Of a DNA stretch of 64,000 bases, positions 2,949 through 33,839 are shown in pieces. The first letter of the stretch is position 1. Each line of letters starts with the position of its first letter. The notes beneath the pieces are model-generated. The model did not search any database. It was not told where the DNA came from and was given only the letters and a program-made list of their open reading frames with translations. Source of the stretch: Chiayiivirga flava. Its GTDB lineage: Bacteria > Pseudomonadota > Gammaproteobacteria > Xanthomonadales > Xanthomonadaceae. A program made the position numbers and the translations under genes. Location: positions 11,818 through 75,817 of the forward strand of contig NZ_JACHHP010000005.1 in the NCBI RefSeq assembly GCF_014202825.1. The letters are read 5' to 3'.

Positions 2949-4037
2949 CTACACATTGAAGCGGAAGTGCAGCACGTCGCCTTCCTGCACGATGTATTCC
3001 TTGCCTTCGAGCCGCAGCCGGCCCGCTTCCTTGGCGCCGGCCTCGCCGCGGTACTTGATGTAATCGTCGTAGCCGATGGTTTCAGCGCGGATGAACCCCT
3101 TCTCGAAATCGGTGTGGATCACCGCGGCGGCCTGCGGGGCGGTGGCGCCTTTCTTCACCGTCCAGGCGCGCACTTCCTTCACGCCGGCGGTGAAATAGGT
3201 CTGCAGGCCGAGCAGCTTGTAGCCGGCGCGGATCACGCGATTGAGGCCCGGTTCGTCGAAGCCCATGTCGGCGAGGAACGCGTCGCGGTCGGCATCGTCG
3301 AGCTGCGACATTTCCTCTTCCATCGCCGCGCACACCGGCACCACTTCCGCGCCTTCCTCGATCGCGCGTGCGCGCACGCGGTCCAGGTGCGGGTTGTTCT
3401 CGAAGCCGTCGTCGTTGACGTTGGCCACGTACATCACGGGCTTGAGCGTGAGCAGGAACAGCTCGCGCAGCAGGCCCTTGTCGTCGGCGCTCAGGTCCAT
3501 CGAACGCGCGGGCTTGCCGGCATTCAGATGCTCGCGCACGCGCTTGAGCACCTCGGCGCGGACGATGGCGTCCTTGTCGCCGGTGCGGGCGGCGCGCTCG
3601 TAGCGGTTCAGCGCCTTCTCCACCGACTCGAGGTCGGCCAGCGCCAGTTCGGTGTCGATCGTCTCGATGTCCGCGATCGGATCGACCTTGTTGCTGACGT
3701 GGATCACGTCACCCTCGAAACAGCGCACCACGTGCGCGATGGCATCGGTTTCGCGGATATTGGCGAGGAACTTGTTGCCCAGGCCCTCGCCCTTGCTGGC
3801 ACCGGCCACGAGCCCGGCGATATCGACGAATTCCACGGCCGTGGGAATGATCTTCTGCGGCTTGACGATGTCGCCGAGCGCTGCAAGGCGCGGATCGGGC
3901 ACCGGCACCACGCCCACGTTCGGATCGATGGTGCAGAACGGGAAGTTGGCCGCCGCGATGCCGGCGCGGGTCAGCGCGTTGAAGAGGGTCGATTTGCCGA
4001 CGTTCGGCAGACCGACGATGCCGCATTTGATGCCCAT
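2949..4037 (-). CDS. ychF: Redox-regulated ATPase YchF (Obg-like GTPase family)
   Basis: 363 aa starting [23 protein letters not shown] with a P-loop. Ends in a TGS domain. The upstream part of the track ORF (ESRITNHESRI) is translation of a repeat and is not coding. Confidence 0.9.
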
Positions 4038-29160: not shown

Positions 29161-30024
29161 TCAGCGCTTGGCCGAGGCCGTCTGGTACAGGTCGGCAGCG
29201 CGCTTCTGCAGCGCGGCGAGCTCCTCGTCCGACGCCGGCGCATCGCCCTGCTCGTTCACGACCACCTGGCCATCGGCGTTCCAGCCCACGAGCGTGGTCA
29301 CGCCCGACTGCTTGCGCTCCACCACCCACGGCTTGCCACCCTGGTAGGCATAACGGAACTCGGCCGAGCCGGCGTCGCCGTAGTCGACCTGCTCGCGCGC
29401 CATGCGGATCTGGCCGCTGGTGTCGACGAAGGCGTCCCAGCCTACCGAGATCTCCTCCTCCAGTCGCTCGCCCTTGATCCGGCGCAGGGCGCCGATCTCG
29501 CCCTCGAGCTTGCGGAAATCGGCCTTCATCTTTTCGTTCGGCGGAACATCGGCGGCCGGCTGCCCGCCGCGCACCAGTTCCAGCGCGACGCCGCTGCTCG
29601 GCGCGCCCTGGGTCAGCACGGGGACCGGGGCCGGGGTGCCGTAGAGCACGAAGGTTTCGGCCTTCAGCGCGGCCTGCAGGGCGTAGACGCGGGTCTGGTC
29701 GACCTTGGCCGGGTCGTAGCCCAGCGCCACCTGGGCCGGCATCGCCGGCGCCGGCTGGGTCGACTCGGCCACCACCACGGGCAGCGCGGCCGGATCGGTC
29801 ACGTCGACGAGCTTGAGCTCCAGCGCAATGCCGGGCGCCACCTTCGGCGCGTCCTTGATCGACACATTGGCGCTGATCGACGGACCGGACACGGCCACGG
29901 CCTGCGCCGGCACGGAGGCCGTCGCCGCTGCGGGCGCGGCGGAGTTCGGGGACGGCGGGGCTTCGCCACCGCACGCGCTCAGGGCGAACGCGGCAACCAG
30001 CGACAACGGCAAGGATTTACCCAT
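29161..30024 (-). CDS. Lipoprotein of unknown function
   Basis: ATG at 30024. MGKSLPLSLVAAFALSACGG has a lipobox. The protein is Ala/Pro-rich. The upstream part of the track ORF is rejected. Confidence 0.6.
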   Translation of the reverse strand: MGKSLPLSLVAAFALSACGGEAPPSPNSAAPAAATASVPAQAVAVSGPSISANVSIKDAPKVAPGIALELKLVDVTDPAALPVVVAESTQPAPAMPAQVALGYDPAKVDQTRVYALQAALKAETFVLYGTPAPVPVLTQGAPSSGVALELVRGGQPAADVPPNEKMKADFRKLEGEIGALRRIKGERLEEEISVGWDAFVDTSGQIRMAREQVDYGDAGSAEFRYAYQGGKPWVVERKQSGVTTLVGWNADGQVVVNEQGDAPASDEELAALQKRAADLYQTASAKR

Positions 30025-30263
30025 GATCACGACTTCTTCTGTTGGTGGATGAAGGAACACCGCGCGACGCGGGCACGCAGACGGATGGCTGCGGCGCCCG
30101 GACACGGGGCCGGCAAGGATAAACCACGCGCGTAAAAAAGACGTTGCAGCACCCGAAGTGACGAATGGCGCACGGCATTCGTCGCGCATGTGTGGGTTCG
30201 CGGGCGAAACAGGCACGACCGTCGCCCGCAATCGACCGCTCGTCTGCCGGTGCGCGAAAGTGT

Positions 30264-30292
30264 TTGCATTCTTCTTAACGAAACTTTAATTT
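30264..30292 (+). promoter_or_regulatory. Sigma70-like promoter in an AT-rich patch
   Basis: TTGCAT (30264-30269), a 17-nt spacer, then TAATTT (30287-30292). The local AT-rich stretch is gtgtttgcattcttcttaacgaaactttaatttgtg. Confidence 0.35.
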
Positions 30293-30493
30293 GTGCCGCC
30301 TCGCCGACCCTTCGGCGATGTCTCCACTCATTCCACAAGGCCGATCCATGTCCCGCTTCATCTTCGCCATCGCCAGCCCGCTCGACGCACCGGCCAGCCG
30401 CCGCGTCACGCGGACGACTGCACACGGCGCCATCACCACGGACTGATCTGCCCGCCACGCGGAGATCGGTCACCCGATCTCCGAGGCTGCACG

Positions 30494-30529
30494 AACGCCC
30501 TCGGACGCACATCCGGGGGCGTTTTTTTT
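30494..30529 (+). terminator. Rho-independent terminator
   Basis: AACGCCC-TCGGA-cgcaca-TCCG-G-GGGCGTT followed by T8 (30522-30529). This is a strong hairpin plus U-tract on the plus strand only. Confidence 0.65.
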
Positions 30530-30724
30530 GCGCGTTCGTCATGGAGCACAACACCACAATCGACGCGGGCGCACAGGCGACCGCGTGCAAGGAATCGGTG
30601 CCGCGACCCGGCATCGATGCATCGCATCAAGGAACGGCTCCCTGCGGCCCGGGTTTGTTGCCCGGCCGGTGCGCACGGCATTGCCGTCGCGTATGCCCGG
30701 AACCGGACACCGGTGCGGTGCAAG

Positions 30725-30793
30725 GCGGCGGTAGCTCAGCGGTGAGAGCACGGGCGTGTCCCGAGGTCGCCGGTTCGACTTCGGCCCGCCGCG
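30725..30793 (+). tRNA. tRNA-like element 1 with truncated anticodon arm (non-canonical; possible tRNA mimic or pseudo-tRNA)
   Basis: GCGGCGG-TA-GCTC-AGCGGTGA-GAGC-A-CGGG-CGTGT-CCCG-AGGTC-GCCGG-TTCGACT-TCGGC-CCGCCGC-G. The 7-bp acceptor pairs perfectly. D-arm and T-arm are canonical (GTAGCTCAG...GGTTCGA). The anticodon arm is only a 4-bp stem with a 5-nt loop. Length 69 nt, no CCA. Confidence 0.45.
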
Positions 30794-30865
30794 TTTGGAT
30801 AGCTCAGACGGGTAGAGCACAGAACGTTGATTCTGAAGTCGCGGGTTCGAATCCCGCTCCAAGAC
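30793..30865 (+). tRNA. tRNA-like element 2 with 6-nt anticodon loop (non-canonical)
   Basis: GTTTGGA-TA-GCTC-AGACGGGTA-GAGC-A-CAGAA-CGTTGA-TTCTG-AAGTC-GCGGG-TTCGAAT-CCCGC-TCCAAGA-C. The anticodon loop has 6 nt instead of 7 and there is a G1-A72 mismatch. Its first nucleotide is the discriminator base of element 1, so there is no spacer between the two. Confidence 0.45.
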
Positions 30866-31160
30866 ACATGACCTGTCACGTCATGACCACGGGACGCAAG
30901 TCCCTTCCACGGAAACGCCCCGCGCGGCGTTTCGTCATCCCGCCGCAGCGGCAACGCGGCGTGGTGTCGAGCGATGCAGCGGACCCATCGCCGGGTCTTC
31001 GCCTTCGCAGGGCGCGGGCCGGTCTGCAGCGTCCCGTGTGACCGCGCGGGCTGCGTTCCGGCCTCCGCCCCAACGCGCGCCTGGACTCCGCGACGTGCTT
31101 CGCCAGGGGCGCTTCCACCTATTCCGCGATGTGCGCCCGCGCATCGCAAACGCATCCAAC

Positions 31161-31350
31161 GCCCCTCTCCCGTGGGAGAGGGGTTGGGGAGAGGGTCTGG
31201 GACGAACAAAACGCCGGCAATCGCCTCGTGCCAGCAAGTCGCTGCTATTGCTTCCTTGAAATGGCAATGGCAACTCACGCAACACGACCGCAGCAGTGCA
31301 CGCCATTGCAACGCTTCGACCGAACCCTCTCCCACGGAGAGAGGGGCTCA
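31161..31350. repeat. Family-B REP inverted pair flanking a 125-bp spacer
   Basis: 31161-31196 is cccctctcccgtgggagaggggttggggagaggg. 31321-31350 is cgaaccctctcccacggagagaggggct. Confidence 0.65.
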
Positions 31351-31438
31351 ACGACATCCCCGCACGCGCGAATCGATCCGGCGCATGCGGCTTCAGCGCA
31401 AACGGATCGAACCACCAGAGCCACAAGGAGAACCCACC

Positions 31439-32563
31439 ATGTTCTGGACCAAGAGGGTCGTGATCGGCGACGGCGAGCGCGGCCTGGTGTATCGCAACAA
31501 GCAGTTCGAGGCCGTGCTCGGCCCGCGCGTGCACCGCATCGTCGACCCGTTCAACCGGGTCGTCGTGCTGACGCATTCGATCGCGAATCCCGAATACGCC
31601 GGCCGCGACATCGACACGCTGCGTGCCCGCCTCGGCGATGTGCGCTTCGACGAACTGTTCCTGCTCGTCGACCTGCGAGCCGACGAAGTCGGTCTGGTGC
31701 GTCAGCACGGCGTCATCGAGGACGTGCTCGCGCCGGGCACGCGCAAGATCTTCTGGCGCGGCGACGGCCGGTTGAGCGTCGAGCGCATGGTGCTGGACGA
31801 GGGCCTGCAACTGCGCGCGGACGTGATGCAGCGCCTGCGCCAGCTCGGCACGCTGTCGAAGGTGGCCGTGGCGGTGCACGTGCCGGCGGAGTCGACGGGC
31901 CTCGTGTTCATCGACGGCAAGCTGATGCGCTCGCTGGCGCCGGGCGCCTACGCCTTCTGGAACTTCCAGAAGAACGTGGTGGCCGAGGTCGTCGAGCAGC
32001 GCGTGCAGTCGATCGAGGTCTCGGGCCAGGAGTTGCTGACCCGCGACAAGGTCTCGCTGCGCGTGAACCTCGCCGCGTCGCTGCGCGTCGTCGATCCGGT
32101 GGCCGCGAAGACGCGCGTGGCGAAGTTCGTCGACCACGTCTACCGCGAACTGCAGTACGGCCTGCGCCGTGCCGTGGCCGCGAAGACGCTCGACGAACTG
32201 CTCGGCGACAAGGCCTCGCTCGACGCCGACATCTACGCCTACGTGCACGGCCGCGTCGGCGAGTTCGGCATCGACATGCTCGGTGTCGGCGTCAAGGACG
32301 TGATCCTGCCGGGCGAGATGAAGGAGATCCTCAACGGCGTGGTGCAGGCGGAGAAGTCGGCGCAGGCCAACGTCATCCGCCGTCGCGAGGAGGCGAACGC
32401 CACGCGTTCCCTGCTCAACACCGCGAAGCTGATCGAGGAGAGTCCGGTGCTGATGCGGCTGAAGGAACTGGAGGCGCTGGAAAAGGTCACCGAGAAGATC
32501 GACAAGCTCACCGTGTTCGGCGGCCTGGACGGCGTGCTGAAGCAGCTGGTGACGATGAAGTAG
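31439..32563 (+). CDS. SPFH/band 7 (slipin-like) domain protein with a 170-aa N-terminal extension
   Basis: ATG at 31439 with AAGGAG 8 nt upstream. The C-terminal half (TRDKVSLRVNLAASLRVVDPVAAK...VILPGEMKEILNGVVQAEKSAQANVIRRREEA) is a band-7 domain. No N-terminal TM helix. Confidence 0.8.
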   Translation: MFWTKRVVIGDGERGLVYRNKQFEAVLGPRVHRIVDPFNRVVVLTHSIANPEYAGRDIDTLRARLGDVRFDELFLLVDLRADEVGLVRQHGVIEDVLAPGTRKIFWRGDGRLSVERMVLDEGLQLRADVMQRLRQLGTLSKVAVAVHVPAESTGLVFIDGKLMRSLAPGAYAFWNFQKNVVAEVVEQRVQSIEVSGQELLTRDKVSLRVNLAASLRVVDPVAAKTRVAKFVDHVYRELQYGLRRAVAAKTLDELLGDKASLDADIYAYVHGRVGEFGIDMLGVGVKDVILPGEMKEILNGVVQAEKSAQANVIRRREEANATRSLLNTAKLIEESPVLMRLKELEALEKVTEKIDKLTVFGGLDGVLKQLVTMK

Positions 32564-32618
32564 CACCCCGCGCGCGGCGGACGGAACCACCGCGCGCGGC
32601 CTCGATGGAAGCAAGGAC

Positions 32619-33839
32619 ATGGACACGAACAACTACGAGTTGCTGCATGCGGAAGGTTCGCGCACACCGATCAAGGGCTGGGTGCGGGGCGTGCCGCTGG
32701 AAGCCGAAGCCCACCAGCAATTGCGCAACATCGCGGACATCCCGTTCGTGGGCCCGTGGGTGGCGGTGATGCCGGACGTGCATCTAGGCAAGGGTGCGAC
32801 CGTGGGCTCGGTGATCCCGACGCGCGGCGCGATCATCCCGGCCGCGGTCGGCGTCGACATCGGCTGCGGCATGGCGGCGGTGCGCACCACGCTGCGCGCG
32901 GACGACCTGCCGGACAGCCTCGCGCAGCTGCGTTCTAGCATCGAACGCGGCGTGCCGGTGGGCAATGGCCGCTTCGGCGAGCACCACAAGATTCCCGACA
33001 GCATCGAGACGCGTGTTGCGCAGTCCGGGCTGGTGCAGCGCCTCGATGCGATCAAGGCGAAGCATCGGAAGATCCGCACCGACAAGCTCGATCGCCAGAT
33101 CGGCACGCTCGGCGGCGGCAACCACTTCATCGAGCTCTGCCTCGACGAGAGCGATGCCGTGTGGGTGATGCTGCACTCGGGCTCGCGCGGGACGGGCAAC
33201 CTCATCGGCACGTATTTCATCGAACGTGCGCGCGAGGAACTCGGCCGGCGCGTGCTCGGTTTCCAACTGCCGGACAAGGACCTCGCGTTCTTCCTCGAGG
33301 GCGAGCCGCTGTTCGACGACTACGTCGAGGCGGTGTCGTGGGCGCAAGACTACGCGCGCCACAACCGCGAGGCGATGATGGCGCGCGTGCTGCACGACAT
33401 GCGCCAGCGCTTGCCGAAGTTCCAGCTCACGCAGATGGCGGTGAACTGCCACCACAACTACGTCAACCGCGAAACGCATGGTGGCGAATCGCTGCTCGTC
33501 ACGCGCAAGGGCGCGGTGAGTGCGCGTGAAGGCGAACTCGGCATGATTCCGGGCAGCATGGGCACGCGCAGCTACATCGTGCGTGGCCTCGGCAACGCGG
33601 ACAGCTTCCACAGCTGCAGCCACGGTGCCGGACGCGTGATGAGCCGCACGCGGGCGCGGCAGGAGATCACGCTGGCGCAGCATCGCGAGGCCACCGCGCA
33701 CTTGGAGTGCCGCAAGGATGCCTCGGTGGTCGACGAATCGCCGGCCGCGTACAAGCCGATCGAGGCGGTGATGGCGGCGCAGCAGGATCTGGTGGAGATC
33801 GTGCATACGCTGCGGCAAGTGGTGTGCATCAAGGGGTGA
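32619..33839 (+). CDS. rtcB: RNA-splicing ligase RtcB (3'-phosphate/5'-hydroxyl RNA ligase)
   Basis: 406 aa: MDTNNYELLHAEGSRTPIKGWVRGVPLEAEA...GGGNHFIELC...NCHHNYV...SCSHGAGR, with all the conserved metal and GMP-His motifs. No rtcA or rtcR is adjacent. Confidence 0.9.
   Translation: MDTNNYELLHAEGSRTPIKGWVRGVPLEAEAHQQLRNIADIPFVGPWVAVMPDVHLGKGATVGSVIPTRGAIIPAAVGVDIGCGMAAVRTTLRADDLPDSLAQLRSSIERGVPVGNGRFGEHHKIPDSIETRVAQSGLVQRLDAIKAKHRKIRTDKLDRQIGTLGGGNHFIELCLDESDAVWVMLHSGSRGTGNLIGTYFIERAREELGRRVLGFQLPDKDLAFFLEGEPLFDDYVEAVSWAQDYARHNREAMMARVLHDMRQRLPKFQLTQMAVNCHHNYVNRETHGGESLLVTRKGAVSAREGELGMIPGSMGTRSYIVRGLGNADSFHSCSHGAGRVMSRTRARQEITLAQHREATAHLECRKDASVVDESPAAYKPIEAVMAAQQDLVEIVHTLRQVVCIKG

Follow-up and report, generated by a model that had tools for sequence, protein, structure and literature searches.

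A conserved promoter-to-terminator unit at the head of the RtcB RNA-repair cassette of Lysobacterales is a probable leader-peptide attenuator

What is the role of a short unit that has its own promoter and its own strong terminator, and that stands directly ahead of two tandem tRNA-like RNAs and of the gene for the RNA ligase RtcB? The question is raised by a 64,000-nucleotide (nt) window of contig NZ_JACHHP010000005.1 from Chiayiivirga flava, whose positions are used as coordinates throughout and in which the unit begins at 30264. A sequence-only reading of this window had described it as an orphan, and proposed that it is either a free-standing small RNA (sRNA) or a small-protein gene. By comparing the locus with its relatives we come to a different answer: with a probability of about 0.7, the unit is a leader-peptide (ribosome-mediated) transcription attenuator of an RtcB RNA-repair cassette.

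Related loci were gathered through the Band-7 protein of the cassette. This gave 393 relatives, the best 80 of which were taken; these are all Lysobacterales, and include the genera Luteimonas, Pseudoxanthomonas, Lysobacter, Xanthomonas, Thermomonas, Dyella, Rhodanobacter and Arenimonas. The hairpin and terminator that characterize the unit lie 0.9-1.0 kb upstream of the Band-7 gene in 72 of these 80 loci, four more carry them at other offsets or slightly changed, and the remaining four are cut-off contigs. A metagenome scan with the pattern of hairpin 1 (see below) returned 120 stretches, around half of which were chance matches in unrelated genes and were discarded, leaving 51 new, non-redundant, true instances of the leader. 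The unit-bearing set with enough upstream sequence comprises 76 Lysobacterales genomes and 51 metagenome contigs. Open reading frame (ORF) counts refer to 124 sequences (73 from genomes, 51 from metagenomes), helix pairing counts to 71 distinct genome sequences, and family folding counts to 123 sequences.

In every locus with enough upstream sequence, the unit is the first conserved element of a self-contained cassette with the order leader, structured RNA, two tRNA-like RNAs, Band-7 protein and RtcB RNA ligase, and it is in this sense no orphan. The genes upstream of the unit and downstream of rtcB vary among genomes while the unit is constant; it therefore heads the cassette, and is unrelated to the adjoining YscW-like lipoprotein gene of the window, which had been correctly placed upstream on the minus strand (start at 30024). 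The location of the unit upstream of the tandem tRNA-like elements (30725-30866) was also rightly given. Moreover, the leader is found where most of the cassette is missing. In L106 and L087 (contig positions 10090-10460 and 500-1020) rtcB follows leader and terminator at a distance of 110-260 nt, with neither a tRNA-like RNA nor a Band-7 gene in between, and in L126 (12450-13090) the structured RNA is the sole element between leader and rtcB, Band-7 and tRNA-like RNAs being absent. It is rtcB, therefore, with which the leader is always associated.

The unit starts with a sigma-70-type promoter. The TTGCAT-17-TAATTT arrangement that had been read from the single sequence is present, with the -35 element at 30264-30269, a 17-nt spacer and the -10 element at 30287-30292; an A/T-rich stretch precedes it in the window and a G+C-rich discriminator follows. 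At the aligned position, 89 of 89 relatives have TTGNNN-17-TANNNT with a spacer of constantly 17 nt, and the family consensus from the alignment is AAAAA..cTTGCa-N17-TAAnGT-GCGCGnC. The conserved leader promoter has the look of a stable-RNA promoter. Transcription is predicted to start at about 30299. A generic promoter scan missed the window promoter, because TTGCAT matches TTGACA at only three of six positions, and by the same kind of scan about two terminator-like sites are expected by chance in the region. A single sequence is therefore weak evidence, and it is conservation that shows these features to be real. This also holds for the Rho-independent terminator with its T8 run, which was correctly recognized and is conserved in all related loci with enough upstream sequence. 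Close to the 5' end, the window has a stem-loop, and a hairpin of -6 kcal/mol or lower lies within the first 32 nt in 57 of 79 relatives, where the stem sequences differ.

Between promoter and terminator lies a short ORF. It had been placed at 30318-30446, with no obvious ribosome-binding site; an ATG ORF without a clear ribosome-binding site is indeed there and is conserved, but its conserved start is the in-frame ATG at 30348, the one at 30318 being specific to the window. A start codon occupies the aligned position in 124 of 124 sequences (73/73 genomes and 51/51 metagenome contigs), and is ATG in all 73 genome leaders, ATG in 45 metagenome leaders and TTG in six, which form one clade (L106, L087, L097, L125, L151 and L185). 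The frame opened by this start is uninterrupted in 124 of 124 sequences and stops 9-19 nt ahead of hairpin 1 (10-19 nt in the 51 of 51 metagenome leaders), for a length of 32-49 codons in the 73 genomes and 33-51 in the 51 metagenome sequences. The other two plus-strand frames do not share this layout in the 73 genome sequences. No minus-strand frame is open in all sequences, as would be seen for a gene lying under the ORF. Shuffling gives a chance of 0.035 per sequence for the observed layout.

Does the ORF then encode a small protein, of 32 amino acids (aa) in the window, with a function of its own? A frame kept in all 124 sequences, a coding-like distribution of G+C over the three codon positions (0.64/0.51/0.78) and a few semi-conserved residues (F-H-I-A near codons 5-8 and R-D-A near codons 18-20) would be in line with this. 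However, the peptide evolves almost neutrally. All pooled pairs are saturated and uninformative for the ratio of nonsynonymous to synonymous differences (pN/pS), and we used 41 close pairs instead: pN/pS is 0.78, against 0.88-0.92 in shifted frames, and differences are spread evenly over the codon positions (236/233/251). Moreover, the length varies between 32 and 51 aa, and we found neither a Pfam match nor a hydrophobic or other recognizable motif. We consider a small-protein gene very improbable, contrary to one of the two original proposals. No conserved codon run, such as defines the subclass of attenuators belonging to amino-acid operons, occurs in the leader ORF. Altogether, its signature is what would be expected if its presumed translation mattered and its product did not.

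Downstream of the ORF, the RNA can form a series of mutually overlapping helices: 0:1, 1:2 (hairpin 1), 2:3 (antiterminator) and 3:4 (terminator). In RNA letters, segment 0 is CUGAUCUGC with the UGA stop codon, segment 1 is GGAGAUCGG, segment 2 is CCGAUCUCC plus GAGG, segment 3 is CCUCGGA in the terminator 5' arm, and segment 4 is the terminator 3' arm with the U-run. Hairpin 1, present as a single copy in the window and extendable there by one pair (C30460 with G30483), has 99.2% of its cells paired in the 71 sequences, with compensatory changes from A-U to G-C. The terminator hairpin (30493-30524) has 13 pairs, eight of them G-C, around a 6-nt loop; folding of the 39-nt terminator gives -23.3 kcal/mol (z = -6.7), and its stem is paired in 98.3% of cells across relatives, again with compensatory pairs. 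Taken jointly, hairpin 1 and terminator are 98.7% paired with 27 compensatory cells.

The antiterminator shares bases with hairpin 1, at its 3' end, and with the terminator 5' arm, at its top. Its pairs were counted directly by script, since MAFFT put the 5' strand out of register; this strand is misaligned in A1 and in the anchored A2 because of the way in which MAFFT placed a one-base length difference. All seven pairs are formed in 67 of 71 genomes, in two forms: UCCGAGG with CCUCGGA, as in the window, in 27 genomes, and CCCGAGG with CCUCGGG in 44. The first pair is accordingly U:A or C:G (27 and 44 genomes), is mismatched in none of the 71 sequences and switches about eight times on the Band-7 tree. 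This covariation is kept in the metagenome set with one exception (L119), and L122, L153 and L183 have a shifted-register version of 2:3, UCUCCCG with CGGGAGG. The A/G base of the antiterminator that is shared with the terminator also covaries with its terminator partner (G-C in 42, A-U in 21). One base thus retains two mutually exclusive partners, one in 2:3 and the other in 3:4.

The first helix of the series involves the end of the ORF. The stop-codon motif CUGAUCUCC in segment 0 is approximately a copy of the hairpin-1 3' arm, and can pair with the hairpin-1 5' arm. Across the family, the stop codon either falls within segment 0 or precedes it by no more than 7 nt. The 0:1 hairpin has -12.4 kcal/mol in the window, and a family mean of -10.1 kcal/mol compared with -5.7 for shuffled sequences (mean z = -1.97). 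Its changes track the variants of hairpin 1: L035, L057 and L064 combine GACC with GGUC, L021 has an inserted base that is matched, and L011 and L037 have an 8-bp version.

A further helix reaches across the T-run of the terminator. In the family it takes the form GCGAACGC with GCGUUCGC; it is paired in 96.3% of cells with changes on both sides in three pairs, which was reached in 0 of 500 shuffles, and L106 retains it with another sequence, GGCGACGC/GCGTCGTC. This outer helix is formable solely in RNA that has been read through the terminator.

These helices also bear on the other original proposal, an independent, trans-acting sRNA of about 230 nt, whose hairpin 1 and terminator would be a stability or Hfq-binding module and whose ORF would be incidental or dual-function. 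The discrete stretch from promoter to strong terminator, the high sequence conservation of its 3' half and a fold z-score of -4.2 are what such an RNA would show, but neither a conserved ORF architecture nor mutually exclusive covarying helices are needed by it, and the latter look instead like those of a cis-acting attenuator. Likewise, the conserved helix bridging the U-run requires a read-through RNA, and the unit constantly heads the rtcB cassette in cis, also in contigs that lack the tRNA-like RNAs and Band-7. No Rfam sRNA family matches the unit, the best being ncS037 with 24.4 bits against a gathering score of 112. When the window and eight relatives were searched with Rfam at gathering and permissive thresholds, tRNA alone passed and the leader was unmatched. 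We therefore regard a free-standing sRNA as improbable.

The arrangement is the one expected of a leader-peptide attenuator: a short ORF lies between promoter and genes, an intrinsic terminator lies downstream of it, an antiterminator shares bases with the terminator, and the position of a ribosome on the leader ORF overlaps a segment of the switch, segment 0. Folding predictions are consistent with a switch. The minimum-energy fold of 30440-30505, in which the terminator 3' arm is absent, is 0:1 plus 2:3 (-30.1 kcal/mol), and that of 30440-30540 is hairpin 1 plus terminator (-49.9 kcal/mol). In the family, short nascent RNAs fold as 0:1 plus 2:3 in 84 of 123 sequences, and hairpin 1 is formed in 123 of 123 when a ribosome standing on the stop codon is simulated by masking 16 nt, beginning with the last sense codon.

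From these data we can propose how the attenuator might work. An RNA starting from the conserved promoter near 30299 would bear the 32-codon ORF. A ribosome following the polymerase closely would reach the stop codon and cover segment 0, which would let 1:2 form and tie up segment 2; with segment 2 unavailable, the 3:4 terminator would form and transcription would end at about 30529. If the ribosome lagged or stalled in the ORF, or perhaps if none was loaded, segment 0 would be free and 0:1 would form first. Segment 2 could then pair with segment 3, the terminator could not nucleate, and the polymerase would continue into the tRNA-like RNAs, the Band-7 gene and rtcB. We infer the translation of the ORF, the feeding of downstream genes by read-through and the polarity of the switch (slow translation as the ON state) from sequence and predicted structure. 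Since the leader ORF has no required sequence, it would report the general speed of translation. Such a signal would suit the role ascribed to RtcB.

Several observations weigh against this attenuator. Most leaders have no Shine-Dalgarno sequence, and 41 of 73 do not have even a 3-nt match; because of this, initiation may be weak, which is awkward for a model needing tight coupling of transcription and translation. The terminator is a strong one, and together with hairpin 1 it makes up the preferred fold of the full-length RNA; hairpin 1 also wins in 92 of 123 sequences when the whole untranslated leader is folded. For about one third of the family, chiefly Pseudoxanthomonas, hairpin 1 is preferred already in the short nascent RNA, and the 0:1 helix is weak in the Pseudoxanthomonas clade. 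A first register considered for 0:1, CTGATC with GATCGG, was paired in 91.5% of cells with covariation that was not significant (45 of 500 shuffles), and was abandoned; energy-based folding gives the fuller register CUGAUCUCC with GGAGAUCGG. Finally, segment 0 has no conserved upstream partner: no conserved "-1" segment pairing with segment 0, as in trp superattenuation, was found within the ORF, where such pairing is, if anything, avoided (mean z = +0.74).

A different kind of objection comes from sequence invariance. Hairpin 1 including its loop and the terminator 5' arm are almost invariant, more than pairing needs, and there would be scope for a ligand, either protein or RNA. A trans-acting factor, such as RtcB, the Band-7 protein, damaged tRNA or the tRNA-like RNA, might bind hairpin 1 or the antiterminator and set termination with or without a ribosome, and the absence of a protein regulator adjacent to the cassette would suit such a switch. 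On the other hand, no known riboswitch or T-box model matches, and a stop codon fixed in or just before segment 0 in 124 of 124 sequences points to the ribosome as the effector. Control by a ligand appears quite improbable to us.

Lastly, the terminator might simply insulate a short constitutive transcript from downstream RNAs and genes using a promoter of their own that has escaped recognition. Its strength and its being favored in the full-length RNA would agree with this, as would a site with GATTAT found repeatedly, about 150 nt ahead of Band-7, in certain loci of Dyella and Rhodanobacter. Our promoter scans covered sigma-70-like and sigma-54-like patterns, and a promoter of another type could exist downstream of the terminator, a further point against the attenuator. 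However, a search with these patterns from the terminator to the tRNA-like RNAs showed no promoter that is kept at an aligned position. A sigma-54 promoter (GG-N10-GC) is matched loosely in 11 of 73 loci at inconsistent positions, none of them in the window. The short distance between terminator and rtcB in L106 and L087 also speaks against a separate promoter, and an insulator would leave both the antiterminator covariation and the helix bridging the U-run without purpose. We judge an insulating terminator unlikely, and retain the ribosome-mediated attenuator as the best account of the unit. The coordinates of its features, and of the rest of the cassette, are collected in Table 1.

Table 1. 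Leader, cassette and nearest upstream gene in the Chiayiivirga flava window.
Feature	Position	Strand	Basis or value
Sigma-70-type promoter	30264..30292	+	read from sequence; aligns with family consensus
5'-proximal stem-loop TCGCCGA-CCCT-TCGGCGA, 7 bp	30301..30318	+	folding, -11.2 kcal/mol, z = -3.75
Putative leader ORF, 32 codons + TGA (30444-30446), MSRFIFAIASPLDAPASRRVTRTTAHGAITTD	30348..30446	+	conserved start, open frame, stop position
Segment 0, CTGATCTGC, holds stop codon	30443..30451	+	complementary to hairpin-1 5' arm
Hairpin 1 (segments 1+2), perfect 9 bp, GGAGATCGG-TCAC-CCGATCTCC	30461..30482	+	-18.5 kcal/mol, z = -5.3
Putative antiterminator (2:3), TCCGAGG 30480-30486 with CCTCGGA 30499-30505	30480..30505	+	-12.1 kcal/mol, z = -3.0
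Intrinsic terminator (3:4), stem GAACGCCCTCGGA / TCCGGGGGCGTTT, loop CGCACA, T8 30522-30529	30493..30529	+	terminator scan
Outer helix across T-run, ACGAACGC 30491-30498 with GCGTTCGT 30532-30539	30491..30539	+	covariation
G+C-rich structured RNA leading into tRNA-likes	30632..30724	+	blastn conservation, alignment
Two tandem Band-7-associated-type tRNA-like RNAs	30725..30866	+	ARAGORN; Rfam tRNA 40.6 and 46.7 bits
SPFH/Band-7 protein gene, 374 aa	31439..32563	+	Pfam Band_7, 87.6 bits
RtcB RNA ligase gene, 406 aa	32619..33839	+	Pfam RtcB, 413.5 bits
YscW-like lipoprotein gene, nearest upstream	start codon 30024-30022	-	not part of the cassette

Concerning the remainder of the cassette, the structured RNA has several hairpins, with motifs such as GCATCCGG...CCG, GGATTGGCGCC...GGCGCCAATGCGGAAC and CCGGTGCGCGCGGCGCTGCCGTGGCGTATGCC, and has no match among Rfam families. 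In the window its 5' part is lost and the 3' part alone is kept, and relatives have 250-350 nt between the terminator and the first tRNA-like RNA (for example positions 3170-3466 in L013). Dyella, Rhodanobacter and Pseudoxanthomonas also have, just past the terminator, a second short ORF of 12-22 codons that is absent from the window (examples are L039, at about 3130-3185, L044, L063 and L002). A good Shine-Dalgarno motif, AAGGA or GGGGA, stands 6-8 nt ahead of its ATG, and its end is often Pro-Pro-stop or Ser-Pro-stop, as in MHRKVMTALIIGRPLPP. This ORF may be a second translational checkpoint.

In the window, the anticodon loop is 5 nt long in one of the two tRNA-like RNAs and 6 nt long in the other. 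Their acceptor, D and T arms are conserved in 26 relatives (for example L007 1270-1416 and L041 3462-3609), where ARAGORN assigns them nearly any identity (Met, Leu, Lys, Arg, Thr, Pro, Asn, His, Ala, Ile, Gln, Cys, Phe, Ser and 'SeC') or an undefined two-base anticodon. The anticodon loop therefore appears to evolve freely. The second tRNA-like RNA is followed by two or three small conserved hairpins (30868-30960: CATGACCTGTCACGTCATG, GGGACGCAAGTCCC, CGCCCCGCGCGGCG), which occur in many relatives too. Between the tRNA-like RNAs and the Band-7 gene, at 31150-31350, lies an inverted pair of repeats resembling repetitive extragenic palindromic (REP) elements, CCCCTCTCCCGTGGGAGAGGGGTTGGGGAGAGGGT ... 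CCCTCTCCCACGGAGAGAGGGGC, with weak Rfam matches at chance level (VA 28 bits, isrG 19 bits); a similar repeat is present elsewhere in the L053 locus.

In the window, the cassette (30026-33839) lies between the cox operon and TamB. The flanks are unrelated across genomes, and this suggests that the cassette, from leader through rtcB, has moved or been inserted repeatedly as a unit. No gene for a sigma-54 activator or RtcR was found beside the cassette in the immediate flanks of the sampled loci.

Transcription attenuation by leader peptides is classically represented by the amino-acid operons trp, his, leu, thr and pheA. The unit shares with these systems a promoter-proximal short ORF, a chain of overlapping helices ending in an intrinsic terminator, an antiterminator that uses bases of the terminator 5' arm and, as we infer here, the selection of helices by the position of the ribosome. 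It differs from them in having no regulatory codon run and a nearly neutral peptide, so that it would sense the general speed of translation; in having its stop codon inside the first switch segment; and in its targets, which are tRNA-like RNAs and an RNA ligase rather than biosynthetic enzymes. The class of mechanism is well known, and the target is unusual and informative.

A literature search for a leader or attenuator of rtcB found no relevant description. The closest functional parallel is armZ of Pseudomonas aeruginosa (PA5471, described as an RtcB-like ligase of RNA), for which control by the leader peptide PA5471.1, through attenuation sensing stalled ribosomes, has been proposed (PMC12057347). 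Both systems have a leader peptide and one or more terminators before a gene of the RtcB family, and in both a relief of termination when ribosomes are stalled or impaired is proposed, a likeness that is functional only. ArmZ is an anti-repressor of MexZ, whereas the product here is a full-length RtcB, encoded together with a Band-7 protein and tRNA-like RNAs.

The rtcBA genes of Escherichia coli and Salmonella are controlled by RtcR, an enhancer-binding protein with a CARF domain, and a sigma-54 promoter (PMC7790460, PMC5175333), a route of RtcB induction that responds to damaged tRNA (PMC7790460). If our proposal is right, expression of the ligase would in both cases be tied to damage of the translation apparatus. 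Unlike in that system, we found no conserved sigma-54 promoter and, in the sampled flanks, no activator gene; a leader acting in cis stands in their place.

As for the cassette itself, a "b7a-tRNA" (Band-7-associated tRNA) RNA-repair system was predicted by Burroughs and Aravind, as related in bioRxiv 10.1101/312249, according to which the tRNA-like RNA of the Band-7/RtcB system is without experimental validation. The window has the same gene set, with all three components present. It differs from the system as summarized in that source by the leader ORF and the putative attenuator, which the summary does not mention, and by the tandem arrangement of the tRNA-like RNAs and the structured RNA preceding them.

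What would these data mean for RNA repair in Lysobacterales? A more far-reaching proposal, to which we give somewhat less than an even chance, is that the RtcB cassette with its tRNA-like RNAs is switched on directly by translation speed in this order, the leader ORF being a general sensor of ribosome lag that acts through a four-helix relay, with no protein regulator or RtcR and with a second checkpoint in some lineages. If true, this would be a route of RNA-repair induction that needs neither a protein regulator nor RtcR; the lag could stem from tRNA damage, from ribosome-targeting antibiotics or from starvation; and some lineages would add a second checkpoint, the short ORF ending with Pro-Pro-stop or Ser-Pro-stop after the terminator. 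The attenuator model also suggests a reason for a stable-RNA-like promoter ahead of a short ORF.

The model can be tested by mutation in culturable strains of Lysobacter, Luteimonas and Xanthomonas. Were it wrong, the conserved element would remain an undescribed RNA motif tied to rtcB. The inducers and substrates of bacterial RtcB are only partly understood, and RtcR with sigma-54 gives one known answer to how the ligase is induced. A leader that reads translation would be a second, independent answer, in which repair is induced when ribosomes trail the polymerase, and would provide the first regulatory handle on the Band-7/tRNA-like branch of RNA-repair systems.

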